Assembly: GCF_032118995.1 (NCBI RefSeq)
Contig: NC_092661.1
Location: 19,654,621-19,718,620, forward strand
Length of the DNA stretch: 64,000 bases
Direction: 5' to 3'
From: Asterias amurensis
Taxonomy: Eukaryota
Below, one piece after another: positions 1 to 33,466 of the stretch. Made by a program: the position numbers and the translations under genes. The notes under the pieces were generated by a model. It was not told the DNA's origin and did not search any database. It worked only from the letters and a program-made list of their open reading frames with translations. Numbering within the stretch: position 1 is the first letter of the stretch; every line of letters starts with the position of its first letter.

Positions 1-106
1 CATGGGATCAGGCAACCTGGCAAACCACCATAAACAGCGTCCTATAGTTTGGACATTGAGTTACCATGGAGATTTGTAAATCATCAGAGCATGAGTCTTG
101 AATTTA

Positions 107-275
107 AAATGTGTGCACTACCAAGTCTGACAACTGCCCCTGACTAAGTAGACAAAACAGACTAGAGTTCCACGGGTCATTTGGTTGGTAGAACTTTGAT
201 ATAAAAACCAAAAGTAACATCATCTCAAAATGAACCAAGTAGATTAAGAATTCTTGAACTACTACTGTACCAACC
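107..275 (-). CDS. TRPA1: Probable TRPA1-like S4 exon (VGTVVVQEFLIYLVHFEMMLLLVFISKFYQ…); 3' boundary uncertain; gene continues beyond the window start
   Basis: Acceptor tcatgtttacag|; phase 0 matches the S3 exon; FLIYLVHFE resembles vertebrate FLLYLQRFE. Donor not resolved; the ORF reaches a stop at 104. Confidence 0.35.
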
Positions 276-1021
276 TGTAAACATGACAATATAAATGCCA
301 AACTGGGGGAACTTTCTCAGGAATAGGATAAGGTTTATCCAAGCTAAGAAGACAGCCACAGCGCCACACTGCCATTGCCACTCCTGAAAACAAACCATTC
401 CATCAACTAATGAATGTATTGCTCAGTGTTATTACAAATCTACATTATGGAAATTCAAGGGAGCATATTGGCAACAAAATCCGAACACAATTCAACTATC
501 CTGAATTTATGTAACATTTAACTTTGATGTTTCCTTCAGAATATATATTGACTGATCTAGTTCTGAAAGGACAACTAAAAGATAAAGGTTTGAATGTTGA
601 GCACTGACACTAACGTTACTTGCAACCAAGAACTTGCGTCCTTTCCACCATTCAAAACATTTTACCTGAAAATACAATATGATAAACTAATTTCTGTTCT
701 AACAAAAGAAGAACGTTGAGGATCTGTTTCAATAAGCTTGATGATTTTCATTTTAAAAAAATGACAGAGGACTCCTTAAATCCCTCCACTGGCATCTCGT
801 AAAAGATAGAATTCTCTTCAAAGTATTTTTGTTTGTTTTTAAAATGACCAGACGCCATTATATATATCAAGGATTGCTTTACCCATTTTTGCTTACCATT
901 TCTGGGACCCATGGCAAATCTGGCGATTCGCACATTCACTATAACTGCATCCACAGAATGGAACAACCTCATGTCTTTCATTAAAGCCGCAACATTTACT
1001 TCTGAAAACACATCTCTTCCC

Positions 1022-1399
1022 TGTTTAAAGCCATTGGACCCTTTCGGTAAACTGTGTTGTCCGAGGCCCACACTTTGTGTACCACAACTTCTATATCAAA
1101 TAACACACCTGTGAAGATTTAGGCTCATTCGGTCATCGGAGTTGGGAGAAAACTACGGAAAACCACACCCTTGTTTCCACGTGTTTCGCCGTGTCATGAC
1201 ATGTGTTAAAAATAAATCAGTAATTCTCGTTAACGAGAATTTATATTGTTTTGCTGTTTTCTCAAAAAGTAAAGCATTTCATGGACTAATATTTCAAGAG
1301 AAGTCTTTCACCATTGCCTTCTATAAACCCTGTAAGTTATTTGTAAATCTGTGAACTTTTATTTTTTTTCTGAACCGAAAAGGTCCAATGACTTTAAGC
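1022..1399. mobile_element. MITE, ~380 bp, TIR ttaaagccattggaccctttcggtaaac (copy A)
   Basis: Terminal inverted repeats; about 85% identical to the copy at 29927..30300. Confidence 0.7.
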
Positions 1400-1669
1400 T
1401 TTTCTCTTTTTCTCATTCTTTTCAAACCTTGTATGTAGCTTTTCCGGTAAGATTTCCTTACTTATTGTGCATTTTTAGTTTTTGTTAGCGCTTTTATGTA
1501 GTTTTCTAGGGAGAGTGTTTCTAAATACCTGGTTTTATTATTATTATTATTATTATTATTGTTATTGTTGTGCAACCCACACAAGGGGCATACAATCCTG
1601 GTGAAAATGAATGAGAAACATGACAATAAATATAACCTTGATAAATAAAGCTAGAGCAAAGAGCCATGC

Positions 1670-3852
1670 ATTGATAACCAACAATGACCAGTGGTCAAGA
1701 GGGATGAAGGCCCAGTAAGATTTGACCAGGATAGTAAAACGGTACCTTGATATTACCAACAATGACCAGTGGTCAAGAGGGATGAAGGCCCAGTAAGATT
1801 AGACCAGGATAGTAAAAGGGTACCTTGATATTACCAACAATGACCAGTGGTCAAGAGGGATGAAGGCCCAGTAAGATTTGACCAGGATGGTAAAACGGTA
1901 CCTTGATATTACAAACAATGACCAATGGTCAAGAGGGATGAAGGCCCAGTAAAATTTGACCAGGAAAGTAAGGGGGTACCTTGATATACCAACAATGACC
2001 AGTGGTCAAGAGGGATGAAGGCCCAATAAGATTAGACCAGGATAGTAAAAGGGTACCTTGATATTACCAACAATGACCAGTGGTCAAGAGGGATGAAGGC
2101 CCAGTAAGATTTGACCAGGATCGTAAAAGGGTACCTTGATATTACCAACAATGACAAGTGGTCAAGAGGGATGAAGGACCAGTAAGATTTGACCAGGAGA
2201 GTAAAAGGGTACCTTGATATTACCAACAATGACCAGTGGTCAAGAGGGATGAAGGCCCAGTAAGATTAGACCAGGATAGTAAAACGGTACCTTGATATTA
2301 CCAACAATGACCAGTGGTCAAGAGGGATGAAGGCCCAGTAAGATTAGACCAGGAGAGTAAAAGGGTACCTTCATATTACCAACAATGACCAGTGGTCAAG
2401 AGGGATGAAGGCCCAGTAAGATTAGACCAGGATAGTAAAAGGGTACCTCGATATTACCAACAATGACCAGTGGTCAAGAGGGATGAAGGCCCAGTAAAAT
2501 TTGACCAGGAAAGTAAGAGGGTACCTTGATATTACCAACAATGACCAGTGGTCAAGAGGGATGAAGGCCCAGTAAGATTAGACCAGGATAGTAAAAGGGT
2601 ACCTTGATATACCAACAATGACCAGTGGACAAGAGGGATAAAGCCCCAGTAAGATTAGACCAGGATAGTAAAAGGGTACCTTGATATTACCAACAATGAC
2701 CAGTGGTCAAGAGGGATGAAGGCCCAGTAAGATTAGACCAGGAGAGTAAAAGGGTACCTTCATATTACCAACAATGACCAGTGGTCAAGAGGGATGAAGG
2801 CCCAGTAAGATTAGACAAGGATAGTAAAAGGGTACCTCGATATTACCAACAATGACCAGTGGTCAAGAGGGATGAAGGCCCAGTAAAATTTGACCAGGAA
2901 AGTAAGAGGGTACCTTGATATTACCAACAATGACCAGTGGTCAAGAGGGATGAAGGCCCAGTAAGATTAGACCAGGATAGTAAAAGGGTACCTTGATATA
3001 CCAACAATGACCAGTGGACAAGAGGGATAAAGCCCCAGTAAGATAAGACCAGGATAGTAAAAGGGTACCTTGATATTACCAACAATGACCAGTGGTCAAG
3101 AGGGATGAAGGCCCAGTAAGATTTTACCAGGAGAGTAAAAGGGTACCTTGATATTACAAACAATGACCAGTGGTCAAGAGGGATGAATGCCCCGTAAGAT
3201 GAGACCAGGATACTAAAAGGGTACCTTGATATTACCAACAATGACCAGTGGTCAAGAGGGATGAAGGCCCAGTAAGATTAGACCAGGATAGTAAAACGGT
3301 ACCTTGATATTACCAACAATGAACAGTGGTCAAGAGGGATGAATGCCCCGTAAGATTAGACCAGGATAGTAAAACGCGGTACCTTGATATTACCAACAAT
3401 GACCAGTGGTCAAGAGGGATGAAGGCCCAGTAAGATTTGACGCGGATAGTAAAAGGGTACCTTGATATTACCAACAATGACCAGTGGTCAAGAGGGATGA
3501 AGGCCCAGTAAGATTTGACCAGGATAGTAAAACGGTACCTTGATATTACCAACAATGACCAATGGTCAAGAGGGATGAAGGCCCAGTAAAATTTGACCAG
3601 GATAGTAAAAGGGTACCTTGATATTACCAACAATGACCAGTGGTCAAGAGGGATGAAGGCCCAGTAAGATTTGACCAGGAGGGTAAAACGGTACCTTGAT
3701 ATTACCAACAATGACCAGTGGTCAATAGGGATGAAGGCCCAGTAAGATTTGACCAGGAGGGTAAAACGGTACCTTGATATTACCAACAATGACCAGTGGT
3801 CAATAGGGATGAAGGCCCAGTAAGATTAGACCAGGATAGTAAAAGGGTACCT
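1670..3852. repeat. Minisatellite, ~79-bp unit ×~28 (…accttgatattaccaacaatgaccagtggtcaagagggatgaaggcccagtaagatt(t/a)gaccaggatagtaaaagggt…)
   Basis: Periodicity read directly from the sequence; the six-frame track shows reiterated pseudo-ORFs (SYWAFIPLDHWSLLVISRYPFTILVK…) that are repeat artefacts; intronic in TRPA1. Confidence 0.9.
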
Positions 3853-3854
3853 TA

Positions 3855-4029
3855 CCAGAGTGACAGAGACACATTGTGCACCTGACACAGTGCAGTCTGC
3901 TCCGGGCATGTATGGATAGGATACTCCAGATAGAGGTAGCACAAACAAGATGGACAGTATGTAGATAAACCATTCAAGTATATTCACAAAGCCAATGTAG
4001 TTCAGTTTCTGATGGTACATCTGGATTAG
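3855..4029 (-). CDS. TRPA1: TRPA1-like S3 exon (LIQMYHQKLNYIGFVNILEWFIYILSILFVLPLSGVSYPYMPGADCTVSGAQCVSVTL)
   Basis: Matches vertebrate TRPA1 QIFQQKRNYFMDISNVLEWIIYTTGIIFVLPLF; acceptor cattcattttacag|, donor CACTCTG|gtaagg immediately followed by the minisatellite. Confidence 0.75.
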
Positions 4030-4585
4030 CTGTAAAATGAATGTGAGACAGAGTTCCAACTTAAAAATAACAGGTGCTGTTTCTATAGCCCAACAAAAAT
4101 AAGATGGATTTATACAACTCAATACTTTTAGTTGCCAGTTCTTTATCCTATCATGCACACATTAATTCTCTTGTCTAAGTCTTTTAAGATTGTCACTTGC
4201 AAACATTCTGTGCAATAACAGCATTCAACAAAATGAAGTCTTAAATTTCTCAGTATTGTGATCAGCATTTTTCAATATATGTTTGGCTTCGTGATGTTTT
4301 AGGGTAACTAACGACACGAATTACGAAATGGCTACCTGAGTTGTTATTCCCCCGAGTCTTTATTTCCAAGCTCGAGGGCGCACTTCAAGGTCAAACTATG
4401 ATAGGTTATGTGTAAAGATTGATGCTACTACTTATGTTTTTCCGACTATTTTTAAAAAGCCCCATACCAAAAGAATGTTTCAAATTCAATGGCCCTTAAA
4501 GCTGTGGTTTCCGAAGGACCTAGTTGCCATCTGTGATAAGCAGCAGACCTTGGTTATGTATTTATTAAAGTAACTCGACCTTACC

Positions 4586-4771
4586 TCCTTTAAGATGTTG
4601 AATCCAGATAACCCAATGATGACCCAATCACCGACTTTTCCAAATATGAGGTGAGTAGTGGGACTGAAACCATCTTCCCAACGCATCTTACCATCTGTAT
4701 TCCAAGTGACTGTCTTATTGTCCTCCATATTGAAATAAAAAGGAGGTGGGTTCGTTGTCACATAACCTGCG
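4586..4771 (-). CDS. TRPA1: TRPA1-like S1-S2 loop/S2 exon (GYVTTNPPPFYFNMEDNKTVTWNTDGKMRWEDGFSPTTHLIFGKVGDWVIIGLSGFNILKE)
   Basis: Acceptor ctctcatcgcag|, donor AAAGGAG|gtaagg; hydrophobic segment; position matches the TRPA1 S1-S2 region. Confidence 0.75.
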
Positions 4772-5054
4772 ATGAGAGGCAAAAAATGGTATTCTTGCAA
4801 TAACTACTAATTAGTCAAACAAGGGATTGAATCACATAGTGCCAAATTAAGTCAAACAGAAAAACCACTTCATCGTTTAAAAAAAATTCTTCAACATTTT
4901 ATAAAAGGCGTACATTACATTTTAGTGCTACAAATCACACACTTGCACTTCATAAATAGCGATGAAGATTTGTAAAACAAAACAAAACATGTACAAAAAC
5001 ACTTTATAAACTGAATACCAAAAAGCCCCATCCCAAACCAAACAAAAAACATAC

Positions 5055-5190
5055 CAGTCAGGAAGATGAGGTAAAGCGTGTAAAACATCAATGATATGTA
5101 GTAGAAAATTCTGCCGTAGCTGTCCCATTTATGCTGAAGTAAACTGGTGACTAATGGATGGCCTAGCAACTCATCCCGCCTAGAATTAAC
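5055..5190 (-). CDS. TRPA1: TRPA1-like pre-S1/S1 exon (VNSRRDELLGHPLVTSLLQHKWDSYGRIFYYISLMFYTLYLIFLT)
   Basis: Matches the conserved TRPA motif NHPVCKEYLLMKWLAYG; acceptor tcttgtttag|, donor CTGACTG|gtatgt. Confidence 0.8.
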
Positions 5191-7024
5191 CTAAACAAGA
5201 AATACAAAAACATATGTTTGAATAATAAGCAGCTCAAGTTTTGTTGATGACATGGTCTATTGTCACCAGAAAATACTGCTTGACTTAGTTATTTGCTGAG
5301 CAAAAATTTAGAAGGGCACCAGAAACTTAATGTAATTTTGGCTTGAAACCTATTTCTATTAAGCAATACTTTTCGGTGCTTATCAGGCTTAATGAAATTG
5401 GTCTCAGGTGAGGTGGTTCTACTGGTTAAGACATCTGATCTAGAATGTGGAAGGAAGGTAAATGGTTTTAGTTCCACCAAAGAAGCCATTTGATGTTTTT
5501 AACCCGCAAAGACTCGGAACATGCCCAGTATAGGCTACAGTTCTTATTCTATACCTGTGTAGGACAAACTTTATTATTTGTAACTTATTTTCTTTAAAAC
5601 ACGATTTCCTGTAAGGTTTATATGTCTATCAACTCATTAACGAAGACACCAAAAACATTCATGGAACAAACCATTATCGTCAGGGGGTGGTTCTTCCTCA
5701 AGATCTCTGCATCTGTTGTGTAAGGAGTGGCAGAGGAAATCAGATTTCCATTGTCATGAAACGGCGAGTCATCAGATCCTCCAGACTTCTCAGATGTGTT
5801 ATCTAGAAAACAAACAAAAAAAGATCATTTTAATAATTTCATTCATTCATTCATTCATTCATTCATTCATTCAAACTTACATTTATTTCCATATTTGGAC
5901 AAAAGCTTCCTAGGGTATTTAATTAACTGCTGATTTAGATGAGGGTAACGTTTCCGTATGGCGCCACCACTTTTTCATTCGATATGAAATAATATAGTAT
6001 CTAATTTACCTCAATGAGATATCCCTTTTTGTAAAAATGAGTGAAAAAGTGGTGGCGTCATACGGAAAGTTATCCTAGATGAGTGTTGAATTTATCAATG
6101 ACGAGGTCTTCATTGGAAATAAATGGTAACAAATAACAAATTTCAGTAACAAATGAAAATCACAAGCCCTAACACTTTAAAGACTTACTGTCAAAGCACA
6201 CGACTTACAATGACTTTACGATACACTCTTGTTTTCTACTGGCTTACTTGCTGCTTATTCATTTATTACTACAAGATGTGTACAATATCCAAGCAGCTGA
6301 CAATGAGGATCATATTGAAGTATCTAACCATACATTACAAAACAGCAAGGAATTGGCAAAAGAAAATGGGATTACATCGTCATTTAATTAACCATGCCAA
6401 GAAATTGATGTCAACTCATCTGTCTTTTGTATAAATTACTTTTCTCACATAGCCATTAGCCTACATGTACATTCCTTAAAATCAATGGGAAAAAAATGCT
6501 ACTATTACCAACAACTACAGTGACATTTAAACCATGCCAATCAACACATCAAAAATTAAAACATAAAATAAATGAATTGGAACTTGAAACAAACTATTCT
6601 ACAGACACAGTGTGGGAGGGCACAGTGGGGGAGGGCAGTTTGGGTCATTTAAACAAAAAATTTAGAGGTTTTTTTTTTTTTTTTTTTTTTTTTTGGGGGG
6701 GGGGGAATTGTGGAATGTATACCCCTAATGGGGGTGCACCAATTCAATAAAGGTATTGGTTGTGTGTTTTCATTTGAAGCAGTGAGAACCTGGTATGTTA
6801 CGAGTCATGGGTTATGGGTCATTGTCAGTACATATTTCTCAAAATAATGCTTGGATTTTCTAAGACAACGTACGTGTAAAGGGGCACCTTCCTGTAACCT
6901 TAGCAACGCCATGACAACACCATAGCTTTATGGCAACTCTACTGACTGGTTTTGAATTCCTTTCAGCTATGGTTTATGCTTTAATTACACTGTCAACAAA
7001 ACCTGAACCAAGGTTGTTTAATAC

Positions 7025-7059: not shown

Positions 7060-8134
7060 CTTGAAATTTACAACAGGAAAAGACATGATAGACAAAATTG
7101 TACAAATGAAATATTACACAGCTCAACATGAGAGATACAAATACAGCAGTGAGAAACACTACTTAAAACAAAGGTGCAAGCAATACTATACAGGCTATAT
7201 TATCCTATCAAATGCAGACCATGAAATTAATACAAAATCAAATATAATGACTAAACCACCAAAGCGAGCAACTCAACGTTAGGGACGAGTTTTAGAATTG
7301 CTTTTTGGTAAAAAATAAAATGGAAGGGAATAATTAGTCTCCAATCAAGTCACAAATTAACTGGAATGTCACCATCGGTTACCTGAATCAAAGTGCGGGT
7401 GATTTTTACTTCCTAGAAAGGCATTTAGTTAGAGAAATAAACAGGCAATATTATTCAATGAGTTGAATAGCACATCTGACTTTAAAGTAATTAAACACAA
7501 CTTATTTCTGAAACAAAGTACAATATTCTTTTTAAAAACCTGTTTTTTTATCAAGCATAAAGCTAACCAGGGGCTTGTGTTTATCTGAGCACTGTATTTT
7601 CTTTAAAGTTGTAAATATTTATGCAGAAAATGTTCTTGGTATAAAACTATGTGATTACAATAAAGTGACAAACACACAGTAAGACCATGGTGGGATGCAG
7701 TTGTACAGTAAAGTGTCATGGTTGAGTGGTCAAGTGCACTGGAACCATGTTCTGGTTCATCAGAGTGCTTTCATGCTTTCTACCTCTCTTTTTATTTCTA
7801 TCCATCTAACTGTTTTTTGTTACACCAATATTTCTGTTACACCAATATTTCTGTTTGTGTGTTGTCATTTGTCTTTTCGAGAAAGACTCTGCCAGGGTTG
7901 AACAAAACCTGGTTTGCAGCTTGAAATAACACAATTTGTGGCATTAGCATACCATGTTAGACAAGAGTTTGATATGGACCAAGTAATATAAATGATAACA
8001 CTCTTGTTGCTATACGTATATCAACCAATCAAAATAAAGAATTAAAGTTTGCTTGAAGATAGTTATTATTGTCCTGCTTTCAGCATAACCCTGTTTGAAA
8101 AAGTTTCTTGTGGAACCAAGGTGAATTCTCTTAC

Positions 8135-8276
8135 CTGAAGAATTATCATCCCACTTGGAGAACATATCATCAAGAAGCTCATAGTCAAATGTAATGCAAT
8201 ACTTGTAATGCTCAGGTGGGTAGTCATTCTCCATCAAACACTTATTGAAAACCACCTCTGCAACATCTGCAAGAAA
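8135..8276 (-). CDS. TRPA1: TRPA1-like linker exon (DVAEVVFNKCLMENDYPPEHYKYCITFDYELLDDMFSKWDDNSSG)
   Basis: Aligns with vertebrate TRPA1 ECMKVLLDFCMLHSTEDKSCRDYYIEYNFKYLQCPLEF; acceptor tttcttgcag|, donor TCAG|gtaaga. A second copy sits at 60612..60743 on the plus strand. Confidence 0.75.
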
Positions 8277-8547
8277 AGCAAGATGCACACTTATAAATAA
8301 AACTTATAAATAAATCTTATCTTATCTTATCTTCTCTTCTCCATCAAACACTTATTGAAAACCAACTCTGCAACATCTGCAAGAATCTACACTTATAAAT
8401 AAAACACATTTCCAAAGGCAGTAAGGGGTAGGGGCCTGGGGAGTCCGCTTGGCAACACCTAATATCAGTAGGTATCTGTTTTATAAAATGTTCATCGAGA
8501 GGAAAAGGAGAAACAATGATACCATTTTAGGTTGGTGGATTTCTTAC

Positions 8548-9188: not shown

Positions 9189-9387
9189 CTAAGGAAAAAG
9201 TAAAGAAAATCATAAATTAAGGAAATAATCAAGAAAACATAAAATATTATAACAATGTGACAATGTATTAACTGATATTCATTGAAATGATCGGAGTTGT
9301 CAATAGTTACAGTGGGATAAAAAATTACAGCAATTATTTATAGCAAGCTGCCTTGTAAAAGAGAAGATGATAAGTAAGTTATCTAAC

Positions 9388-9689: not shown

Positions 9690-10775
9690 GCTCACAAAAA
9701 GTAAGGAAACTTTTTTCAATCCAGTATATTTGTTGGTATTTATTACTCTCTTTGTATATGGTATATATAAATGCAAAGCTGAACTGTTCCTCTTTAAAAT
9801 GATACCACATTTGCAATGATTACATGTTGCTGAACTTGGCTACACGAATAACAATGAGGCAAAGTCACAAATCAAATGTGCCAAAATTACCGTTGTCTGT
9901 GAATGGTCAATGCTCAATAATCAAACCGATCAAGCTTTTCAGAACCATTAGTGGTTTACACAAAGATTGCACCAGTGAGCTCATCAGAAACAATTAACCC
10001 TCATCTCTTGAAAAAACACCTTGTTTGGTGGGTATTTGCAAGACGATATTCTACAGCCGATTGCAGTCCCATACTTGCAGACTCTTGGACCAAAATGCCA
10101 TCTTTCAAGATGACAACGCTCGCCCCCATCGAGCCCGACTGGTGACTGACTACCTGAACAAGGTTGGGGTGCACCGGATGGATTTGCCCGCTAACAGTCC
10201 AGATCTGAATCCCATGGAACATCTGTGGGACCAGCTTGGCCTCGCTGTCCGCGCCAGAACCACCAACACATCAACTTTGGCTGACCTAACCAGGTTCCTT
10301 AATGAAGAATGGAACGCCATCCCTCATCATCAGCGCATCACAAGACTTTTGTGCAGCATGAGAAGAAGGTGCCAGGCTGTCATCAACGCCTTCGGATCAT
10401 CCACTCGTTACTGAACTTCTATCAATTAAGTGTATCAAGATCAGTAAGTTGTCTTGCTCTATACCAAACTTCTTGTCTCAATAAAGTGGATTATGATCAG
10501 TAAGTTGTCTTGCTTGTTTCAGTTACAGTGTCAATTTGATTGTTCACACGGTAACACAAAACTGCTAATTTTGGCACATTTGATTTGTGACTTTGTCTCA
10601 TTCTCATTAACGTGGTCAAGTCCAGCAACATGTAATCATTGCAAGTTTGATATCATTTTGAAGAGGAACATGTCAGCTTTGCAATGATATATACCATACA
10701 CAAATAGAGTATTAAATAATAAAAAATATACTGGATTGAAAAACGTTTCCTTACTTTTTGTGAGCAGTTTAGCTC
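9690..10775 (+). mobile_element. Internally deleted Tc1/mariner-type DNA transposon with long (~200 bp) TIRs and a C-terminal transposase remnant
   Basis: ORF 10025..10414 has DDE-type transposase motifs (DDNARPH…, NSPDLNPMEHLW). Terminal inverted repeats ctgctcacaaaaagtaaggaaac…caatccagtatat at 9690-9735 and 10728-10775, with a nested second inverted repeat at 9780-9900 and 10560-10690. Intronic in TRPA1. Confidence 0.75.
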
Positions 10776-10849
10776 AGAAGCGTCACAGAATGAGGATGCT
10801 TGCTTTGAACTGAAACGCATTGTACGTATAAGTAATAACAATCAAATGG

Positions 10850-11170
10850 CCTCTAGCCACTGGGCTAGCTCAGTGGTCTAGTGGTAAGACATCTGCTCTA
10901 GCAGTGTAAAGGTCATGGGTTTGAATCCCACCCGAGTGATTTGCCAACACATAGGATTCAAACTTCCTCTAGCCACTGGGCTAGCTCAGTGGTCTAGTGG
11001 TAAGACATCTGCTCTAGCAGTGTAAAGGTCATGGGTTTGAATCCCACCTGAGTGATTTGCCAACACATAGGATTCAAACTGCCTCTAGCCACTGGGCTAG
11101 CTCAGTGGTCTAGTGGTAAGACATCTGCTCTAGAATGCAAAGGTAGTGGGTTTGAATCCCACCTGCGTCA
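10850..11170 (+). repeat. Three tandem copies of a tRNA-derived SINE head (gggctagctcagtggtctagtggtaagacatctgctctag…ggtttgaatcccacc)
   Basis: A/B-box-like tRNA motifs without a valid cloverleaf; a ~113-bp unit reiterated; related copies at 5396-5480, 12480-12560, 40200-40480, 56290-56470, 60115-60190. Confidence 0.7.
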
Positions 11171-12721: not shown

Positions 12722-12905
12722 AGTTAAAGCCTGGACTTCATTTTCTTGAGCAGCCCAATAGACAGCACTCTTCTCATGTTTATCAACAGCTCGAATATTT
12801 CCACCACGTTTAAGGAGTTCAGCTATTGTTGCACTGTGTCCATTACTTGCAGCTATTAGCAATGGGGTGAAGTTGTCCTTATCACGACGCTCTAACTTGG
12901 CTCCA
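12722..12905 (-). CDS. TRPA1: TRPA1-like ankyrin exon (SGAKLERRDKDNFTPLLIAASNGHSATIAELLKRGGNIRAVDKHEKSAVYWAAQENEVQALT)
   Basis: Acceptor ttgttacag|, donor AACT|gtaagc; phase-consistent. Confidence 0.7.
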
Positions 12906-13589: not shown

Positions 13590-13801
13590 CAACATCATGT
13601 AGAATAAGAGAGTGTAAACTTTGTGAACTATCTAAGACTAGTGTATGGAAAAGACAAAAGGCAGAGAATTTCAATTGGGGGGGGGGGGGTTATAAAGATA
13701 AGATAATATAAAAGTTAAAAATCAAGCTCTCTATAAGATAGATTTGGTTACAAGCAAAGAAGATAGTTAAAGATATACACTTGTTTAAAAATATTAGTTA
13801 C

Positions 13802-13895: not shown

Positions 13896-14126
13896 CTGTA
13901 ACATTCACATAATGTGTATAAATCAACTCTCAAAATAAGTAAAAAAACAACACAGTCACAATCTGCTTTAAAGCATAATAGCAAACCTGTAGTCTTGTTT
14001 TGATTAAAAGTAATGAACAATGTCATAGACAAGAAAACCGACAAAAGTTTTCGCCAAACAGATTGCATAGAATTTGCTTCATATTATTTGCTGCCAGCCA
14101 TTAGGCTACTATTTCATGATTTTTAC

Positions 14127-14336
14127 CTGGCTCAATATTCCTTGGTTCTCCCCAGCAGCGAACAGCAGTTGGACGATTTTGATATGGCCTTCTGTGCAGG
14201 CAACTAACAATGGGGTATTGTTCTCCTCATCACAGCATCTCAGTTGCGCCCCTTTTTCGATCAGCATTTTGGCGACTTCCAGATTGCCATGGGTACAGGC
14301 CATATGAAGAGGAGTCATTAACTGCTTGTCTACTGC
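14127..14336 (-). CDS. TRPA1: TRPA1-like ankyrin exon (AVDKQLMTPLHMACTHGNLEVAKMLIEKGAQLRCCDEENNTPLLVACTEGHIKIVQLLFAAGENQGILSQ)
   Basis: Two ankyrin repeats; acceptor acctacag|, donor GCCAG|gtaaaa. Confidence 0.8.
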
Positions 14337-14444
14337 CTGTAGGTTAAAGGTCAGTCAAATACTTGAACTTGGTTTAACTATGGCATGTTTTATTCGAATA
14401 GCTTTTTTAAAGAAACTGAGAAAGACTATTTTAAACTGAGAAAT

Positions 14445-14748
14445 ACCTCAAAGAGAATCTTGTTGGAAGAAAGAAGTTCCTTCGCAGCGATATCATTTCC
14501 CCTCATAGCTGCAAAATGCAGCGGACTTTGACCATAGATATCTTGTGCGTTTATATCAGCACCAGCAGACTCCAAGAATGTAATGATACCAGTTGTTTCA
14601 TCAGTAGCATCTTCATCATCCTCATCATCGTCTTCGTTACCGCCATCTTGACCCGATACCACAGCCGTAGCCGTTGCTTTATTAGGACGCTTGCACCGAG
14701 CAGCAAAGTGGATAGGTGTTGTGTTATCATCACCTTTGTTTCCAGGGT
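14445..14748 (-). CDS. TRPA1: TRPA1-like ankyrin exon (DPGNKGDDNTTPIHFAARCK…acidic DDDEDDED insert…SPLHFAAMRGNDIAAKELL)
   Basis: Acceptor tccctag|, donor TTTGAG|gtattt; phase 1 in, phase 0 out; consistent with flanking exons. Confidence 0.75.
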
Positions 14749-15507
14749 CTAGGGATCAAAGATAATCCTGTATAATTAATCTCAATGTGTATTAGGATGG
14801 ATTGATTTGGATTATATCAACTGAATTAGTTGCTTAAACGAGGCTTTGAAATATGTAGGCTGTTTGACCCACTTCAGGACGCCCAGTGCACTTACAGGCA
14901 CCCGTCCTGTCTGTCATTTTGGGAGTCAAAACTTAGACAGAGGAGTCGATTCCCAAATGGCAGAAATTGTAGGTGCATTAGATGGAATGCATTCCGCGTT
15001 GTGCAAGGAACCAGTTGGATGGCAACAAACCATTTCCACAGAGTGATAATGTGTAGAGCAGTAAAATGGTACTTCTGATATCAGGCTTATGAACTTTGAA
15101 CTCAACAAACTGCTGAAGTTGCCAACAAGAAACTGAACAAACTGAAAGATTTTACCTAAAAAACAACACTCTGATCCCATATTGTAGTGTGTGCTCCAGC
15201 ATTGGGAACTTGTTAATGACTTTGTTCCCTTTTGACACCAAACAAAGATTGTTTGAATAATTCGCAAGACTTGAGTACATATCTAATGAGTTGGGAACAA
15301 GAAAATCATTCAGTTCAAGATGTGATGCCACTTACTGGAACTGTGGGAGACCTTTGGGGGCGCTAGAAGGCTCAGACTCACCAGGTTAATAAATACATTT
15401 TTAAAAGATGTGGTAAGTCTGCTGCCACCTAGCATTCAAAAGTCCCCCGTTAGTGAAATAAAGAAAGCTGAAGTGGAGACTCCCAATTGCCCAATAATGT
15501 TCTCTAC

Positions 15508-15676
15508 CTGCTTGGTGTTTGATGAGTAGTTTAACAATCTCGATGTGGTTGTAACGTGCTGCATAGTGGAGAGCACTCAGATTATTCTCATCTAGTTTGT
15601 TAACACGGCGACGTTTATTGGAGCCAATCTGCTCCAAATATCGCCGCATCGTCTCCACTTCTCCATCTCTGGCTGC
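15508..15676 (-). CDS. TRPA1: TRPA1-like ankyrin exon (AARDGEVETMRRYLEQIGSNKRRRVNKLDENNLSALHYAARYNHIEIVKLLIKHQA)
   Basis: Polypyrimidine-AG acceptor, CAG|gtagag donor; ankyrin consensus (LH-AA--GH---V-LL); resembles the start of the vertebrate TRPA1 ankyrin domain. Confidence 0.75.
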
Positions 15677-18521
15677 CTGAGGAATGAGGAGAACAATTTT
15701 ACAAAATAATGGTCGCTATTCATCCTATTCCATAAGAGTGTCAATTGGGAAGATTCTCTGCACCAAAAATTATGACATTGTTGGGGGTACATGTATGCTG
15801 CAAATGATTGTCATTAATACTTGCTTTATGATTGTAAAATGGGACAGTTACATCCAAGACTAATCTTGAACAGCCAGTTATTTCTACAGACACCCACACA
15901 CACCAACTTATTCTAACCCCATAAATTCTTTTTGTTCATCCATTGCCTGGACTTTTTGTTAGTGATGTCCCTACTGATTTTAGCGAGGTGCCCGGTTCCC
16001 TTTTGTTACAGTCTTCAGTATCAAGGAGTTGACACAACTTTCTAACTGTCATTTCTGAACAAAGAATGTTTCTTTGTGCTTCCGATTTGTTATAATCAAA
16101 CATATTATTTTATTTTCAGTTACACATCAAGTTATTTAAAAAATAAACTCTAACCAAATCAAATGAGTGTTTTCTCGTTGTAGGCTAAACCCAATAAATT
16201 GAAAATGATATAGTCTAAAATAAAACTTCTATTTGTTTGTGTGATGTTTTACATGCTCATTAGAGATGACTTGATAATTTGATCAACATACAAATATTTA
16301 AAACTGCCATCAATCAAATATGTGTGATAAACAATCTAAAAGTAGCCCCCTATTGACCCCTTGCACGTGCGTCACACGCGGCGACCATGTTGGTGGGCAG
16401 TTAGGTTTACGTGTATTAACGCCGCATCGCCTAAAATGCACACTTCACTGCATAACGCACAGCATAGAGTTATATAGAGATATATGAAAACGCACAGTGC
16501 AATTGCCCACCAGTATGGCGCATTCAAGATTTTTCTTCTTTGTCAGGTGAAATGGGTCAATAAACACTTCCCCAAATGAGCGTGTTTTCTATAAATCATT
16601 AGTCTCATACTCCTACTCTGACTAAGGACTAACAGAGAAGTAGATGTCTTTCCATGGTTCTTTCAAATTTGATTGAGGGCATCAACAGTATGCAATGGTT
16701 GGATGGGTGATCAAACATTAGTACAACAAGACTAATCTATCAAACTAATAAACCCCAGATGACTGTGGTTCTTCTCTGTATAAGGGTTTGTTTGTATAGG
16801 TATAACATCCCACTATCTCAAGGGGGCCATTGTATAATGTGTGGATATCATAGCATGCTCAATCATCAATGCTAAGATTAATGAGAAATGGACTTTGGTT
16901 TTTAATCATCTAAAGTGGCACCATCCATTTTTTGCTGTTTTTTAAACATTTTTAATGAATTTTGACAGATCATTGCTGATTTAAATTGAAAAGTATAAAA
17001 CAACTTTCGCATTCATGCTAAGGGCAATGCACAAAATATACAATCCATGTGCAGAATTATAAATTGTGAAGCAATGTTAATTAACTACCACTAATCATAT
17101 TGCATCCATGAACACTTTAATCTTTTCTGAACCTTGATGTAAATGTAGTACAGAACTGAAATCAATTTTGGGGGTCAAATCGGCCAAAAAGTTTACCTAT
17201 AACTTCTTTTTATTTATTATGTACACAGATTACCTTGTCTTACTAACTACTCTTATTAAAATTAATATGATAAGTTTAAAGATTATTTTCCTCATGGCCA
17301 CTTTAATGTGATTAATTTGTTCAAAAGCTGAATGCTAAATCTAATAGTGAATCCTTTTATCATGCAGCATATAAGCCTACTTTGAATTAATCATACTGAT
17401 GGCCATAACCCAAGTATCTAAATGAATTGGCAGTTGGCCTACATCACGTCCATTCATGTTACATTTGCAACCTGTTTATTTGACTAGACAGTTTGTTGGT
17501 ATGTTCAGGATATGAACTATTGGTTTCTAGCCAACAATTCCCTTTCATCTCACTGAGTCAGAATCTATACACAAACTTTTGTACCCTTGACCTCAAAAAT
17601 AAAAAAACACCAAATTGAATAAGTTCAACTAAGCATAAAATTGAAATCAGGAACTAAATCGAAACAAGTGTAAAGTAAACAGCGAATCCTATAAAATCAG
17701 TTTTTCAAAAGCTTTTTTGTTTTTTGTTTTTTTCCTGTAGTTTTTCTGTGCATGGCATCCATTTCGCATTTGAATGGCAGCCTTTGATTTCCAGCATTTC
17801 AAATACAACTTTGTGATTTGTATCACTTAATTTCATGGTTATTGTGGTTTTTAATTATATTTTGTGCATCTATTTGTGTAAAGCTACAAAGAGCTTGTTT
17901 TACTATAGTATTATTATTATTACTAATTTCATTGTGAATATTAGCATTTTCGTTGTTATGAAATATGCACCCATGGTAACAAATTGCAGGTAGACAGGAT
18001 GTCATGAATAAATTGCAAAACTTCCCTATTTCATGTGGAATATTGACTTGTGAAAAGCTAATGGACTAGTGAAATAACAAGTTATCCTGCTGGCTAGTTA
18101 CTAAGTAAGAAGGTTAAGGGCAAACCCTGTATCCATAGATGCATGGAGGAAGGAAAAGATAAATCAATTTTCAATGCCATATTTCCAGGTTATTTGATCT
18201 GTTACTTTAACTTGTATTTAATGAGCGTCTTCCCACCTTATTTAATCACATAAAATAATATTTTTCAAAAGGAGAAAAACATGCAATAATGTGGAAAACA
18301 TAACAGTTACCCTTCCTCAACACACTCTGTACTCCAAGGCATTAGTAGGCTATGATTCATGATCAGAATGAATCACATTTTCCATGCAGGTTGTATGCAA
18401 TCAGGGTTTACACAGTGATGGGGCATTTTATCAACGATCAATCATTGATATGAAGACAGTAAACCAGTGGCAGCTTGGTCAGTGATGGGGGGATTGCAAA
18501 GTAAAATGTTAAATGTTATAT

Positions 18522-20100
18522 TTAAGCTTGGGCGATATTGATTTATTTTATTCACGATATATTGCGGACAATATATCACGATCTTCGATATAATCGCGAT
18601 TAATTAAATTTGACATCATCAGTTCTCAAACTCCCAGTGAAAGTTGTAGAAGAGACAGTCTCAGCAAAAGAGAGGTGTTCTAATGACCTATTCTTCTGGT
18701 TTTACTCCAAACATATGGGGTGCAAGCAGCGGCGTAACTAGACATTTTCATTTGGTGGGGCAAGTGGGGGCAAAGATTTAATTTGGGGGGGGCCAAAGAA
18801 GTGCAAGATTATTATTAAATATGTTAACTGATATATAGTTGATACACACCAATGCAGTCCTAAAACAGTCTACCTGGTCAGCACAGCAGGTAACAAAAGA
18901 TTGCGAAAACAACAAAATCTTAGAGAACTTGTCATTTTGTATTTTATAAGATAAAACTTTTCGACTGTATAAAAGGATTAAATTACCAACTGTGATCAAC
19001 TGTGGGTGTGTAAATACCCAAAACATAATAATATTAGGCCAAGTAAAAATAGAAAAATAGAAATGTTTAGCGTCCCCGCCCGACACCTTTTTTTTCTTAA
19101 GTTTTTTTTATGCACATTATTCTTTTTGTTTTTGTTTTGAAAAAGGGTTACTTTAAATGATCTCAGCAAAAAAAAAACAATCTGTATGTCTTGTCTGAAT
19201 GCCTGGACCAAACTGTTTCATTAATGTTTTGTGTATTTCAGCAGCAGAAAATACAATGGATATTTGACATTCATGGCGGCCATCTTGAAATAAAAAATAA
19301 AAAGCCCCTCCTCCTTCCTTTTTTTGAGAAACCCAGATACTAAACATGTTTCTTTTTGTTACTCGGCCTTATTGTAACAAGTGTAAGCCATCAAAAAAAA
19401 AAAAAAAAAAATACAGGATTGAAATTGTGGGTGTTTAATAATCACATTTTAGTTATGAAACGGATATTTCAAATAGGCCTTCCTCTAAATTGCAGCGCTT
19501 GCTTCAAAGGAGAAGAAATGGTCTAAGCAACCTTATTCGCTGGCCATTTTGCTGTAGTAAATTTCTCTGTAGTGCATCGGACCATGGTTCTACCTCCATG
19601 ATCTGACTAAGTTGTGTTAACGGAGCTATTGGTCTGCATTCAGACCACTTTGTCACATCCTGTACTCTCTGTAACCGCAAAACCACAACAAACATTTACC
19701 GCCAATACGATCGCGCGCGCGTTTCCACGCATTTTTCATGTTATAGTCCACATACTGAAATGAATAAAAGTTTTCATTTTTATGGCAGCATTTTATGCAG
19801 TTTTAAACGATTTATATATTAGGAATATAAGAATATACTTTTCTCTGATTCCATATGGGGGGGCAAGAGGGGGGGGGGGCAAGGGTTCTGAGCGGGGGGG
19901 CGCCGGCCCACCCTGCCCCCCCTCTGGTTACGCCACTGGGTGCAAGATGTCTCACCTAGAAAATACATCCCGATATTGCGATATTTAATTGATATCGCGA
20001 TATATTGATATTTCGATTAAAAACAAATCGATCCGATATCGAAATCGTTTCCAAGTTATTATCGCGATATTCGATAATATCGTGATATCGCCCAAGCTTA
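18522..20100. mobile_element. Non-autonomous hAT-like DNA transposon (TIR taagcttgggcgatat…atatcgcccaagctta) with 8-bp TSD gttatatt
   Basis: Perfect 16-bp TIRs, identical 8-bp direct flanks at 18514-18521 and 20101-20108, no long ORF inside; G-rich internal repeats. Confidence 0.7.
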
Positions 20101-20851
20101 GTTATATTAATTGTATTGTAGATCACACTCAATGACTGTGTTTTCTTTTACAAACTGTTTGGTTAGTTTCTATCGAAAGTCACTTTTCCAGTCATAAGGA
20201 TTTTCAAAAATTCTTATCAGATTTCATTTTGGCTTTGGGGTTGTCATGGTTACTTTTTATTTGTGATATAATCAGAATTGATCCCTTGCACGCACGTCAC
20301 ACGCGGCGACTGTGCCACGCTCACCAAATTGGAGGGCAATAGGTTTAGGTGTAAACGCTATGTGGCCTAAAATGCGCACTTCTACCTTACATACACCCCA
20401 ACCACCGCTATCCCAACCCCGACCACGCCCCCACCAGCTTTCCCCAGCCTGCTCCATGAATATCATACAATAATACAGTAATGACAAGAATCACACAAAA
20501 ATTCCATTTAATATAAAAACTAATTCAAATCACAATATGGTTCAAAATACTTTTTTAAGCCTCCTGGGATAGGCCTACAAGGGGTTACCTACTAATTGAC
20601 TGGGTCGATGGTCTCGCAGCTGGTATGAACAATTATAAAGTGTTGCTGCACAGAAAAATGTGTGTTCCAAATGTGTGCAGTGAAACTGTTTTCGGTTAGA
20701 TATGCTTTAAAAATAATAATCAGTCAATTTTCCAAAGCAGACTGCCCCTTTTTCATTCATTCAAAAAACAAAATAGCATCTTTTATGATTGCTTTCGGTA
20801 ACAAATGAGTGAATAAATTTAGTTTATTTATTATGCATATATGATATATAC

Positions 20852-21505
20852 CTGATGTATACTGATGAGATTGGCAAGATCTTCAATACTTTCAGATGCT
20901 GCCAGTCCTCCTCCTAGACCATCTGCAGCATCCAGCTCTGCCTGTGTAGGCCAGTTACGAGCATAATTTTTGGCTCTACGATTCGAATCATCATCACTAT
21001 CTCCACTTCCATGCTGTCTCTGCCATGCACTCATCTCCACCGTGTCTTCACGGTCCAGTCCGCCGTTGAATGTCGGCATATTCCCGGTAGATGATGACAC
21101 GGATGCTAACCTGTTGTCACTACTCCTCGGGGAGCTCTCGCTGCGTGATGGCGATGGCGACGGGGCAACCTTACCAGACCTCACTGTTGACACTCTAGTC
21201 GGTCTTAAATCCACTTTACTTATGCTTGCAATACTACCCTTGGACGCAGAAGATCGTATTTCAGAACTACTAGAATCCTTGGCAGTTAGCCAAGCCTGAG
21301 TAATGGATTGTTTTCTTGATGTGTTTCCGGAAACGTCGCCAAAATCACCGGGAAGATCGTCGTCATCGACGGGTGCCGCGTAGGCGATAGGTGGTAGGTC
21401 CTTTGCTGCTTCGGCCACAAGCAATGCCTCTGTGTCACTGTCACAGGAAAGATCAGAGATAGGGCAATTTCCTTTATTATCGTCCTGTGAGAATATCTGG
21501 CTCAT
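20852..21505 (-). CDS. TRPA1: TRPA1-like channel, coding exon 1 (Ser-rich disordered N-terminus, MSQIFSQDD...ISIHQ); donor CATCAG|gtatat
   Basis: 218-aa ORF from ATG, ends at a canonical GT donor, phase-compatible with the next ankyrin exon (…IHQ|AARDGEVETMRRYLE). Confidence 0.5.
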
Positions 21506-28891: not shown

Positions 28892-29926
28892 GTGAGTATG
28901 AAATGCGACTAATATAAGTGTTTTTTTTGGATGAAATATAAAAAATGGTGACAAGTGAAGTTTTATCTTACTACTGCCCAACTCTGGTCTGCTGCTGATT
29001 GGCATGACACTCTTCTCCGTCCATCTGGTATTCATAATCAACATAAATTGATTGAGAAACCATGCCAATTTCATGTGTGTTTTCTGCCAGAAACTGGCAA
29101 CCTGTCATTTAGTTATTGTTTAGGGCCTACTTTTAGTTTTTTTTTTTTAGTATAGTCATTTTATTTCTAGCCACACTTGTGTGGTCAAGGATAGCTGAAT
29201 CCAGCTGTCCTTGGTCTTGGCCACACAAGTGGGGCTAAATCATTTCTTGACATTTCATATTTAATATAAATAATTTTCATAAATACATAGTTCGATAACC
29301 AAATCTTCTAGGAAGAGCACGGATTTGATCTTCAATGGTGTAATTAATCAGTTAACACTACACATAAAGAAAATATTTTGAATAAATTACCAGAATTTTC
29401 ATGAACCTAACTATTAACCTAAACGCTAGTTGATGTTTTTTTAACTTCTCACTTGCAACATATCTATCAATCACTTCAGTGTAAGAAAACTAATTGACGA
29501 GAGCCACACCTACACAGTGGTTTATTTTATCCTGGTTGGTTGAGTTGAGATTTCGTTCAGAAATCTGAGGTTCAAAAAAATACTTTTGTGCGCATAAATT
29601 GATTTTATTATCGTCACTTTTTTTCCCGAAATTGTTTTTCTAACATAACAAATAAATCAATCAAATTTAAAATTCAAACAAGTTTAACAATATGAGGCAA
29701 AGGTTTATAGAAAATTTTGGTACTTTTTTTTTTGGGGGGGGGGATAATACCCCCACAACTATGCCTCTATTTGTGAGATTATTTTGCAATGAGATTGCAA
29801 AATTAGAAAGGTTAATTGTGGAGGCAGACAGTTCACTTGTGTCAAAGGTAATTGTATGACAAAAAACTAAAGAAACAACTTCAAGTTTAAAAAAAATGTA
29901 TGTAACGGAAATTAAAGAATTTCACT

Positions 29927-30300
29927 TAAAGCCATGTTACACTTTCGGTAAACAGTATTGTCCAAGTCCCACACTTCGTGTATCACAACTAATATATAAA
30001 ATGACAATCCTGTGGAAATTTAGGCTCAATCGGACATCGGAGTCGGGAGAAAATAACGGGAAAACCCACTCCTGTTTTCGCGCGCTTCGCGATGTTATGA
30101 CATGTGTTTATAACAAATCCGTAATTCTCGCTAACGAGAATTTATATTGTTTTACCGTTTTCTCAAAAAGTAAAGCATTTCATGGACTAATATTTCAAGA
30201 GAAGTCTTTCACCATTACCTTCTGTAAACCCTGTAAATTATTTGTAAATCTGTGAACTTTTTTTTTTTTTTCCTGTACCGAAAGGGTCCAATGGCTTTAA
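29927..30300. mobile_element. MITE copy B of the same family (TIR …ccgaaagggtccaatggctttaaag)
   Basis: Aligns along its length with 1022..1399; sits in SEC63 intron 1. Confidence 0.7.
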
Positions 30301-33295: not shown

Positions 33296-33466
33296 AAAAC
33301 CAGGGGTTGATTTCACAAAGAGTTAGGACTAGTCTTATCTCAAGTTAGGACGAGTTACTAGTCCTAACTTAGGACTAGCTGTACGTTTTTGATATCTCTT
33401 AGGACTGGTCCTAAGTTAGGACCAGTCCTAACTCTTTGTGAAATCGACCCCAGACCTTTAAACTTG
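33296..33466. mobile_element. Small palindromic MITE (TIR ggggttgatttcacaaagagttaggact…)
   Basis: Near-perfect inverted halves; shares the GGGG(T/C)CGATTTCA terminus with the elements at 44748, 61440 and 63768. Confidence 0.6.

Follow-up and report, generated by a model that had tools for sequence, protein, structure and literature searches.

A 78-bp minisatellite adjoining the S3-exon splice donor of a sea-star-like TRPA1 homolog

The closest described system to the locus reported here is the intron-18 VNTR of human ABCA7, a 25-bp repeat that flanks an exon and overlaps the splice-donor consensus, the canonical GT being the first two bases of its first unit (De Roeck et al. 2018, PMC5954066). 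In ABCA7, splicing makes use of a cryptic donor in unit 2, and both exon skipping and lower expression correlate with the length of the array; use of a unit GT retains the repeat, which leads to a frameshift and a premature stop and hence to nonsense-mediated decay (NMD) (PMC5954066). More widely, associations with splicing are known for thousands of human tandem repeats, which have been collected in the spl-TR catalogue (Hamanaka et al. 2023, PMC10078293). Here we describe a minisatellite at a 5′ splice site of a TRPA1 homolog, in a window of 64 kb (the whole stretch of 64,000 nucleotides that was analysed). The ABCA7 VNTR is a direct precedent for this array, for which any effect on splicing is putative. 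In the literature we found neither a report of TRPA1 with an intronic minisatellite nor the repeat unit as a printed sequence.

Host gene and anatomy of the array

The host gene, a TRPA1 homolog, is encoded on the minus strand. Nineteen of its exons align with the protein of its nearest named relative, Acanthaster planci XP_022100689.1, which is named 'TRPA1 homolog', and its nine best PDB sequence matches were all TRPA1 (phmmer; best E = 2e-16, and 8e-13 for the 1119-residue chains, which have the length of the human protein). With these matches the gene fits a TRPA1 channel, defined by N-terminal ankyrin repeats, a six-helix channel domain after them and closest similarity to TRPA1; S5-S6 lie beyond the window. 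These relatives came from an exhaustive search; a word-indexed protein search returned one distant match only. The name TRPA1 is taken from the NCBI labels of the nearest relatives and denotes sequence similarity, not clade placement. A 'TRPA basal' clade, set apart from the TRPA1 clade, has been described in starfish (PMC5438368).

In the initial annotation, the array separates the S3 and S4 exons in a channel gene of the TRPA1 type; both exons are supported by homology and translation. The features are as follows, with a slash marking an exon-intron boundary or its equivalent in motifs here and below.

3856..4029, minus strand: S3 exon, 58 codons, LIQMYHQKLNYIGFVNILEWFIYILSILFVLPLSGVSYPYMPGADCTVSGAQCVSVTL (phmmer against PDB TRPA1 chains, tblastn, translation)
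3854..3855, minus strand: GT of the S3-exon 5′ splice site, CTG/GTAAGG (sequence, phase-0 junction, top GT score at and near the exon end, same junction in homologous proteins and in a relative's scaffold)
384..3855, minus strand: S3-S4 intron, 3472 nt, GTAAGG...TTTTCAG (flanking exon alignment, translation)
275..383, minus strand: S4 exon, EWQWQCGAVAVFLAWINLILFLRKFPQFGIYIVMFT plus 1 nt, donor CAG/GTTGGT (95% identity to the Acanthaster protein)
1677..3853, no strand assigned: 78-bp minisatellite (Tandem Repeats Finder, anchored matches, unit table and alignment)

The S3 exon is 174 nt long with phase 0/0, and tblastn with the Acanthaster protein stops exactly at its end, 3856. The position of the S3 donor is supported by this phase, by the only strong GT there and by the protein junction, which is kept in homologs (...RL/DWQWQ in Acanthaster, ...RL/EWQWQ in Diadema and ...RE/AWQWQ in Strongylocentrotus purpuratus).

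Tandem Repeats Finder called a single array with a period of 78, 27.9 copies, 93% matches, 0% indels and a score of 3811. A 39-nt core of the unit gave 28 matches (≤3 mismatches), all within the array, against 0 expected from shuffles, and there are 28 anchored units of 77-80 nt (mode 78), of which the donor-adjacent one is without its last 6 nt. The array is thus a minisatellite by its structure, with many head-to-tail copies of a unit within the range of 10-100 bp, at high identity, over ~2.2 kb; that it is real and of this length had been noted before, with a unit of 79 bp that Tandem Repeats Finder corrects to 78 bp. It occupies intron positions +3 to +2179, or 62.7% of the S3-S4 intron, which is larger because of it: the array lengthens the intron 2.7-fold, and the remaining 1295 nt are near the length of the orthologous Acanthaster intron.

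Tandem Repeats Finder also called a 389-bp, 5-unit higher-order period within the array.

2300..3077, no strand assigned: two adjacent 389-bp, 5-unit blocks, units 9-13 and 14-18 (389-bp period of Tandem Repeats Finder, unit-by-unit variant pattern)

The second block (2689-3077) differs from the first (2300-2688) at 2 positions. Unit-to-unit differences across the array have a minimum at lag 5, an effect that is modest, and private variants are common to the neighbouring units u26/u27 and u27/u28. A block pair and private variants shared between neighbours are the expected trace of growth by unequal exchange, and the block pair points to a recent exchange that involved several units at once. 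No array-wide higher-order periodicity was found; the 2.2-kb array holds this one block duplication only.

At the right end of the array, the plus strand reads ...agtaaaagggtacctt/ac/cagagtg, and the coding (minus) strand at the S3 donor reads CACTCTG/GTAAGGTACCCTTTTAC, letter for letter as in the initial annotation. The donor GT (3855-3854) adjoins the last array base, 3853, so that the array begins at intron +3 and supplies donor positions +3 to +6 (AAGG, 3853-3850). The donor had been described as part of the first repeat unit, which is true only from intron +3 onward; the GT itself lies outside the strict periodicity, which ends at 3853. Together with the last two exon bases, the GT (TGGT) matches the unit's TTGGTAA only with a 6-nt gap. 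When the right flank (3854-3900, and also the complete exon) was aligned locally with a trimer of the unit, it scored no better than shuffles, 690 of 2000 of which reached the score, and a periodicity running into the S3 exon was rejected on these alignments. The left flank gave only a 9-nt match to the trimer, ACCTTGATA, whose score was reached by 93 of 2000 shuffles.

As 78 is a multiple of 3, a 159-aa ORF stays open through the array. This ORF matched no Pfam family (best 0.077, below the cut-off) and had no homologs among 5.8 billion proteins. No Rfam family was found in 1-6000 at E ≤ 1, and the RNA folding of the donor with three units was unremarkable (z = -0.7). With these results, a structured RNA and a coding repeat were both set aside.

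Relatives and lineage distribution

A metagenome scaffold from a relative (L002; 93% identical, 6.7% diverged) has the same exon/repeat junction and breaks off inside unit 2, as short-read assemblies do at repeats. Its second unit reads TTGGTAAGATCAAGGTACCC, with 7 nt (TGGTAAG) in common with the real donor. The position and phase of the S3-S4 intron are conserved in Acanthaster (L003, ~1.15 kb) and in S. purpuratus (L004, 479 nt), and no tandem repeat is present in the orthologous intron at either of these two loci; the array is therefore lineage-specific. No progenitor of the unit was recovered in Acanthaster, where the introns are too diverged to align, and no other copy of the unit was found in the 64-kb window or in the Acanthaster locus. 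An exact 25-mer of the unit had no match in JGI metagenome contigs.

Intronic arrays are common in these TRPA1-type genes: counting distinct arrays with a period of at least 10, the gene in the window has 8, that of Acanthaster 5 and that of S. purpuratus 30, of which one is 7.2 kb long. In the orthologous Acanthaster gene, a different array, with a 38-bp unit, starts at intron +5 of the next donor, right after CAG/GTAAG (L003 32924-33462), and the Acanthaster RefSeq model runs into this array and terminates there (...FTGKPDPRS). Among the 35 distinct arrays of Acanthaster and S. purpuratus, which were not preselected, one starts within 5 nt of a donor, where ~0.09 would be expected by a rough estimate from ~50 donors and 4 positions each in ~80 kb of intron; with P ~0.09, a link between arrays and donors is not significant.

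The unique part of the S3-S4 intron holds an unrelated repeat that is not part of the array.

1025..1397, no strand assigned: MITE-like repeat (self-BLAST)

A copy of it at 29926-30300 is 86% identical. A Tc1/mariner remnant and tRNA-like SINE tandems are also present, and at a distance of 110 nt from the array there is a (TTA)10.7 microsatellite.

Probable origin of the array and possible effects on splicing

The array appears to be an ordinary intronic minisatellite that is specific to its lineage, and it is probably a neutral or nearly neutral passenger that grew by slippage and unequal exchange. A ~78-bp stretch from +3 of the S3-S4 intron would have been tandemly duplicated in a sea-star-like TRPA1 homolog and would then have expanded to 28 copies through unequal exchange and slippage during replication, the recent 5-unit block duplication included. 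The array would be transcribed in the pre-mRNA and spliced out together with the intron. The authentic donor at its edge takes from it only the bases at +3 to +6; the boundary on the donor side would be set by selection on the GT and the exon, and the weak GTs of the array would give rise to at most a low level of unproductive, stop-codon transcripts. Several observations count against a passenger. A random array would be unlikely to start exactly at intron +3 (~0.3% per array, by our own estimate), a relative at 6.7% divergence has the same exon/array junction, and the 38-bp array of Acanthaster sits at +5 of the next donor. Furthermore, two real donors of the gene have an AG/GTAC core, and ABCA7 arrays can alter splicing and expression (PMC5954066).

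The motif AG/GTACC occurs on the coding strand in all 28 units (26 AAG, 2 GAG), which bears out the earlier claim of a donor-like motif in every unit.

3850..3851, minus strand: first of the 28 AG/GTACC pseudo-donor GTs (GT scan, consequence analysis)

This first GT lies 5 nt downstream of the real one, and the rest are spaced 77-80 nt apart (usually 78) as far as ~1744. At the level of sequence, it is fair to call them potential pseudo-donors: the host gene has two genuine donors, GAG/GTACAT and AAG/GTACTA, with the AG/GTAC core of the repeat motif, so that the pseudo-donors may not be inert.

It is nonetheless unlikely that the array acts on splicing as the ABCA7 VNTR does, its AG/GTACC and TTG/GTAA sites binding U1 and being used at times, or its length disturbing the pairing across the intron, with a length-dependent diversion to stop-containing or exon-skipped transcripts that would tune TRPA1 dosage. 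Such an activity would be in keeping with the overlap of the array with the donor consensus at +3 to +6, with the motif being present in 28 of 28 units and with the genuine donors, which show that the AG/GTAC core can be spliced. The human examples also speak for it, namely the used second-unit donor of ABCA7, with its length tied to skipping and lower expression (PMC5954066), and the thousands of splicing-associated tandem repeats (PMC10078293). By a generic 5′ splice-site matrix, whose scores are indicative only, the real donor has 10.2 bits, AAG/GTACC 4.3-4.7 bits and TTG/GTAATA 2.0 bits; in favour of an active array, the second unit of the relative has a better site, TTG/GTAAGA, at 6.8 bits. 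The authentic donor is thus ~6 bits stronger than the repeat sites, which are without +4A and +5G. Moreover, the unique part of the S3-S4 intron has stronger cryptic GTs (10.4 and 8.95 bits on the same matrix), which means that the array does not stand out as a supplier of decoys. The predicted products also argue against an active role, as every one of them would be non-functional: a premature stop is predicted from every repeat site (28 of 28 AG/GTACC and 22 TTG/GTAA). Read-through of the intron reaches a stop after 9 codons.

We are just as doubtful that a duplication taking in the splice donor itself seeded the array, the unit's TTG/GTAATATCAAG/GTACCC being a decayed CTG/GTAAG/GTACCC, which is what the initial annotation says if taken literally. 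The junction, read as TGGTAA and GGTACCC on either side of a 6-nt gap, does align with the unit's TGGTAATATCAAGGTACCC, and the TGGTAAG of the relative's second unit resembles the real donor over 7 nt. However, similarity between exon and unit is absent beyond 4-7 bases, the flank score being reached by 690 of 2000 shuffles as given above, and the strict-register periodicity ends at 3853. A match of 4-7 nt after a free gap is within chance, and it could equally be a trace of the short direct repeats by which slippage is reportedly seeded in the model of Haber and Louis.

It is very improbable that the array belongs to a transposable element (MITE or Helitron-type) as its internal tandem repeat, or that it is a dispersed satellite that landed beside the exon. 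The genome is rich in mobile elements, as the MITE in the same intron, the Tc1/mariner remnant and the tRNA-like SINE tandems illustrate, and the (TTA)10.7 microsatellite lies near the array. Nevertheless, no second copy of the unit turned up in the 64 kb, the Acanthaster locus or the metagenome scan, no terminal inverted repeats flank the array, and an insertion at +3 would have needed to recreate the AAGG of the donor. Least credible of all is an assembly artefact, be it in the length of the array or the array as such: tandem arrays are prone to mis-assembly, but many distinct variant patterns are seen among the 28 units, the 389-bp blocks differ at 2 sites, and the independently assembled scaffold of the relative has the same junction and the start of a second unit.

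Comparison with known systems

If the array is a passenger only, it matters for annotation and assembly. It accounts for the enlarged intron, and it marks a spot where short-read assemblies break and where gene models may extend into repeats, as happens to the Acanthaster RefSeq model in the neighbouring intron. Should it prove to affect splicing, it would be the equivalent of the ABCA7 VNTR in an invertebrate, and a naturally occurring modifier of a sensory ion channel that varies in length. Highly speculative is the wider reading in which echinoderm minisatellites nucleate preferentially at 5′ splice sites and the 28 units form a length-variable U1 decoy, or NMD 'rheostat', for the dose of a thermosensory/chemosensory TRPA1. 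Its basis is the pair of arrays that two sea stars have at neighbouring donors of their orthologous TRPA1 genes, and homogenisation of the repeat would keep the decoys weak (GTAATA here versus GTAAGA in the relative).

Recursive (ratchet) splice sites have the form (Y)nAG/GTAAGT. The units resemble them in that the only transcribed-strand AG of each directly precedes the GT (CAAG/GTACC), but the array is without an adjacent polypyrimidine tract, the regenerated donor would be weak and the intron is short; nothing suggests that recursion would be needed in this intron. Like satellite higher-order repeats, the array has had a whole multi-unit block duplicated (5 units, 389 bp), although it has one such duplication only and is without an array-wide period. 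The 38-bp array at the S4-exon donor of Acanthaster planci TRPA1 shares with it an orthologous gene and a start right after a donor; it differs in having an unrelated unit, in lying in the next intron and in being followed by an assembly gap.

By its structure, as an intronic tandem repeat near a splice junction, the TRPA1 array belongs with ordinary intronic minisatellites or VNTRs and the members of the spl-TR catalogue, but the latter are mostly short-unit repeats that act via RNA-binding proteins or spacing, whereas the TRPA1 array is known structurally. The ABCA7 VNTR is closer. Both are intronic minisatellites that adjoin an exon, overlap the donor consensus and have a GT in every unit, and use of a unit GT leads to a premature stop in ABCA7 and is predicted to do so in TRPA1. 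The TRPA1 array, too, immediately flanks its exon, the last array base, 3853, being intron +3. The two differ in the unit (25 bp versus 78 bp), in the strength of the repeat GTs, which are weaker in TRPA1 (no +5G), and in the host, human for the one and an echinoderm for the other, where the array is known from its sequence alone. Finally, the canonical GT is part of the first unit in ABCA7, whereas in TRPA1 it stands just outside the strict periodicity, which begins at +3.

The array and its host intron

The host gene is encoded on the minus strand. Downstream of the array, translation reads LIQMYHQKLNYIGFVNILEWFIYILSILFVLPL...VSVTL, and 383..275 translates to EWQWQCGAVAVFLAWINLILFLRKFPQFGIYIVMFT. 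When the joined S1-S4 peptide was compared with PDB, TRPA1 chains were matched (best 7ykr, E = 2e-16), including several of 1119 residues, which we take to be the length of human TRPA1, at 8e-13. The two exons align to ...NVLEWIIYTTGIIFVLPL and LQWQCGAIAVYFYWMNFLLYLQRF of the TRPA1 chain, segments that, given TRPA1 topology, are presumably helices S3 and S4. The top match in an exhaustive protein search was a 'TRPA1 homolog' of Acanthaster planci (XP_022100689.1, 71% identity), followed by sea-urchin and hemichordate homologs, which points to an echinoderm, probably a sea star, as the source of the window. By tblastn, the Acanthaster protein was placed in 19 exons from ~21505 down to 275, with 3856 as the exact end of the S3 alignment and 383 as the first position of that of S4. 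These edges and the TRPA1 matches bear out the initial annotation, which had set the array between the S3 and S4 exons of an ion-channel gene:

4029..3856, minus strand: S3 exon, 174 nt, both ends in phase 0
3855..384, minus strand: S3-S4 intron, 3472 nt, GTAAGG...TTTTCAG
383..275, minus strand: S4 exon, 109 nt

The S3-exon donor, CTG|GTAAGG, was the sole strong GT near the exon end in a GT scan and, by codon reading, the only one in phase with the S4 exon. A long S3-S4 loop and this very S3/S4 junction recur in homologous proteins (IMLRL|DWQWQ in Acanthaster, IMVRL|EWQWQ in Diadema, IMVRE|AWQWQ in S. purpuratus), and the Acanthaster and S. purpuratus genomic loci have an intron exactly at this junction. 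Thus, donor strength, phase and conservation in homologs lend good support to the predicted S3 donor, at the position first proposed. Elsewhere, a TRPA-like ORF (P0001) at 4660-5127 of a contig from ENA ERZ19433661 runs uninterrupted from S2 to S5, with ...CWCPTSWQWQMGAVAVFLAWINLILFL at the S3-S4 boundary, and the S3-S4 intron is therefore absent from this eukaryote.

Internal structure and junction with the donor

Tandem Repeats Finder delimited the array at 1677..3853 (period 78, 27.9 copies, 93% matches, 0 indels, score 3811), with a second period of 389 bp, equal to five units, in the same array. It had originally been described as a 79-bp minisatellite at 1670-3860; these coordinates were correct within a few bases, and the unit was one base too long, as units range from 77-80 nt with 78 the commonest length. 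A search with the 39-nt unit core at ≤3 mismatches gave 28 matches, all 28 within the array, with 0 expected from shuffles. The G+C content is 43.8%, against 37.2% for the window. Unit u28, adjacent to the donor, carries one substitution relative to the consensus and lacks the last 6 nt. Units u9-u13 (2300-2688) are repeated as u14-u18 (2689-3077) with 2 differences, private variants are common to the neighbours u26/u27 and u27/u28, and one variant set is common to u4, u11, u16 and u25. Judged from the units, this pattern is the likely trace left by slippage or unequal exchange involving one unit or several at a time, and it argues against a naive assembly artefact. Two palindromes also recur in each unit, the perfect TGACCAGTGGTCA and the KpnI site GGTACC (e.g. 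3790-3802, 3815-3826).

No further copies of the unit were found in the rest of the window, the Acanthaster locus or a JGI metagenome scan, and no inverted repeats were found flanking the array. The array region yielded no Rfam family and no unusual RNA folding (z = -0.7), and the ORF open through several units had neither family nor homologs.

On the + strand, the right end of the array reads ...GGGTACCTT|AC|CAGAGTG, and its last base, 3853, falls on +3 of the intron. The array contributes AAGG (+3..+6) and all that lies downstream. Strict periodicity includes neither the GT (3855-3854) nor the exon. GGGTACCTT is followed by GATATT-ACCAAC inside the array versus ACCAGAG directly at the junction, and when a 6-nt gap is allowed, the junction TGGTAA------GGTACCC aligns to TGGTAATATCAAGGTACCC of the unit. 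When aligned with the unit, the exon flank scored no better than shuffles (690/2000 reach the score). From +3 onward, the donor thus belongs to the first unit, as had been claimed; the GT itself, which aligns only across the gap, may belong to it. A comparable brief echo is seen at the left edge (GCATTGATA|ACCAAC versus CCTTGATATT|ACCAAC). Models in which arrays originate by slippage predict short direct repeats of this sort at the edges.

Age of the array and its repetitive surroundings

An exhaustive search returned a 105-aa ORF on a 1089-bp metagenome scaffold of a close relative (ENA ERZ23498486), which is 93.3% identical to 4825..3741 over its whole length. It has the same S3 exon (7 differences in 174 nt), the same donor and the same 72-nt truncated first unit, and it then enters a second unit and stops within it; this second unit has TTG|GTAAGA versus TTG|GTAATA in the window units. 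The exon/array junction was therefore assembled independently and is older than the 6.7% divergence. The orthologous intron measures ~1.15 kb in Acanthaster and 479 nt in S. purpuratus, the window intron less the array 1295 nt, and no tandem repeat was found in the S3-S4 intron of either Acanthaster or S. purpuratus. In this comparison, the array is a putative lineage-specific insertion by amplification. The introns of the two sea stars can no longer be aligned, and hence no progenitor of the unit was recognisable in that of Acanthaster.

With random placement in an intron of this size, we estimate that a start ≤5 nt from the donor would occur in a few cases per thousand, a probability to be read with the array having been picked for abutting the donor. 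The 35 distinct arrays in the Acanthaster and S. purpuratus loci were not preselected, and 1 begins at +5 of a donor where ~0.09 were expected (P ~0.09, a rough estimate), so that an association of arrays with donors in the two loci is at best suggestive. These genes are very rich in intronic arrays: 8 in the gene of the window, 5 in the Acanthaster locus and 30 in that of S. purpuratus. One adjoins the S4-exon donor, CAG|GTAAGC, of the orthologous Acanthaster gene:

32920-33462 of the Acanthaster planci locus (DF978614.1): 38-bp minisatellite, at least 14.4 copies, then a run of N; begins at +5 of the intron

The RefSeq model XP_022100689.1 runs into this array (...FTGKPDPRS) and ends there; the model is thus truncated after S4. 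Among the 30 distinct arrays in introns of the sea-urchin homolog is one of 7.2 kb with a 384-bp period (13923-21134 of the S. purpuratus locus), and several of the small ones follow an exon at a distance of 30-60 nt. In the window, two small tandem repeats come close to acceptors. One, 28 bp x 2 (12758-12811 in gene orientation, 9190-9243 on the + strand), stops 2 nt upstream of where the exon 12 alignment begins; the other, 13 bp x 2.5 (13681-13712 in gene orientation, 8289-8320 on the + strand), stops 16 nt upstream of where that of exon 14 begins. Outside the TRPA1 gene, minisatellites occupy 42455-43031 (58 bp x 10, 97% matches) and 36189-36806 (113 bp x 5.4).

Other elements were also seen. 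Exon 14 of TRPA1, together with some flank, has an inverted copy 52 kb upstream of the original (60575-60749, +, versus 8129-8302, -; 96% identical), with a weaker extension (60457-60651, 74% identical to 8337-8515); from its sequence it is a candidate isolated duplicated exon or paralog fragment. A 375-bp repeat has two copies, 86% identical, at 1025-1397, within the S3-S4 intron but outside its array, and at 29926-30300; the 26-nt start of one is the reverse complement of the other's end, MITE-like with terminal inverted repeats. Within a TRPA1 intron, an ORF (10025-10414, +) carries the motif DDNARPHRA...PDLNPMEHLWD, which we take to be the C-terminal region of a Tc1/mariner-type transposase, presumably a remnant. 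tRNA-like tandems at 10842-11163 (116 bp x 2.8) and 51094-51766 (335 bp x 2), with related copies near 40202-40497 and 56352-56462, were called by ARAGORN as tRNA-Ala(agc) (10982-11056) and tRNA-Leu(caa) (51174-51259, 51509-51594), and are probably tRNA-derived SINEs.

Predicted splicing consequences and known systems

The array was initially said to carry an AAG|GTACC motif in every unit, and indeed AG|GTACC is found on the coding strand of 28/28 units, with TTG|GTAA in 22. On a generic 5' splice-site matrix, with scores that are indicative only, the real donor reached 10.2 bits, AAG|GTACC(C/G) 4.3-4.7 and TTG|GTAATA 2.0; stronger cryptic GTs (10.4 and 8.95 bits) are present in the same intron, in its non-repeated portion. 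The AG|GTAC core is common to two donors of the gene, GAG|GTACAT (exon 6) and AAG|GTACTA (exon 8), as placed from alignment ends and phase, which makes the repeat motif not implausible as a weak donor. Use of the first array GT, 5 nt downstream of the real donor, would cause a frameshift; every other array site would take in an in-frame TAA 9 codons past the exon end, the same TAA at which plain intron retention would stop. A productive isoform from the array is thus predicted to be impossible, and we consider a modest, unproductive effect on splicing unlikely. CUUACUGG occurs in each unit on the transcribed strand and is able to pair with CUGGUAAG of the donor; in the minimum-energy fold, which is no more stable than in shuffles (z = -0.7), the real donor is paired with the first such motif.

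The best explanation, and in our view a probable one, takes the array to be an intronic minisatellite specific to this lineage, which would have been enlarged by unequal exchange and would be removed with the intron by splicing. Overall, the initial observation was confirmed and its interpretation partly supported.

In humans, a genome-wide catalogue lists thousands of splicing-associated tandem repeats (PMC10078293). The closest documented case is the ABCA7 intron-18 VNTR, in which the cryptic donor of the next unit is used at a low level, the resulting transcripts are frameshifted and subject to nonsense-mediated decay, and array length is correlated with skipping of exon 19 and with lower expression (PMC5954066). 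Unlike in ABCA7, the donor GT at the window array is out of strict register, the unit is longer, and any use of the array sites is hypothetical. The architecture is the same, and the window array belongs to this already known kind of repeat.
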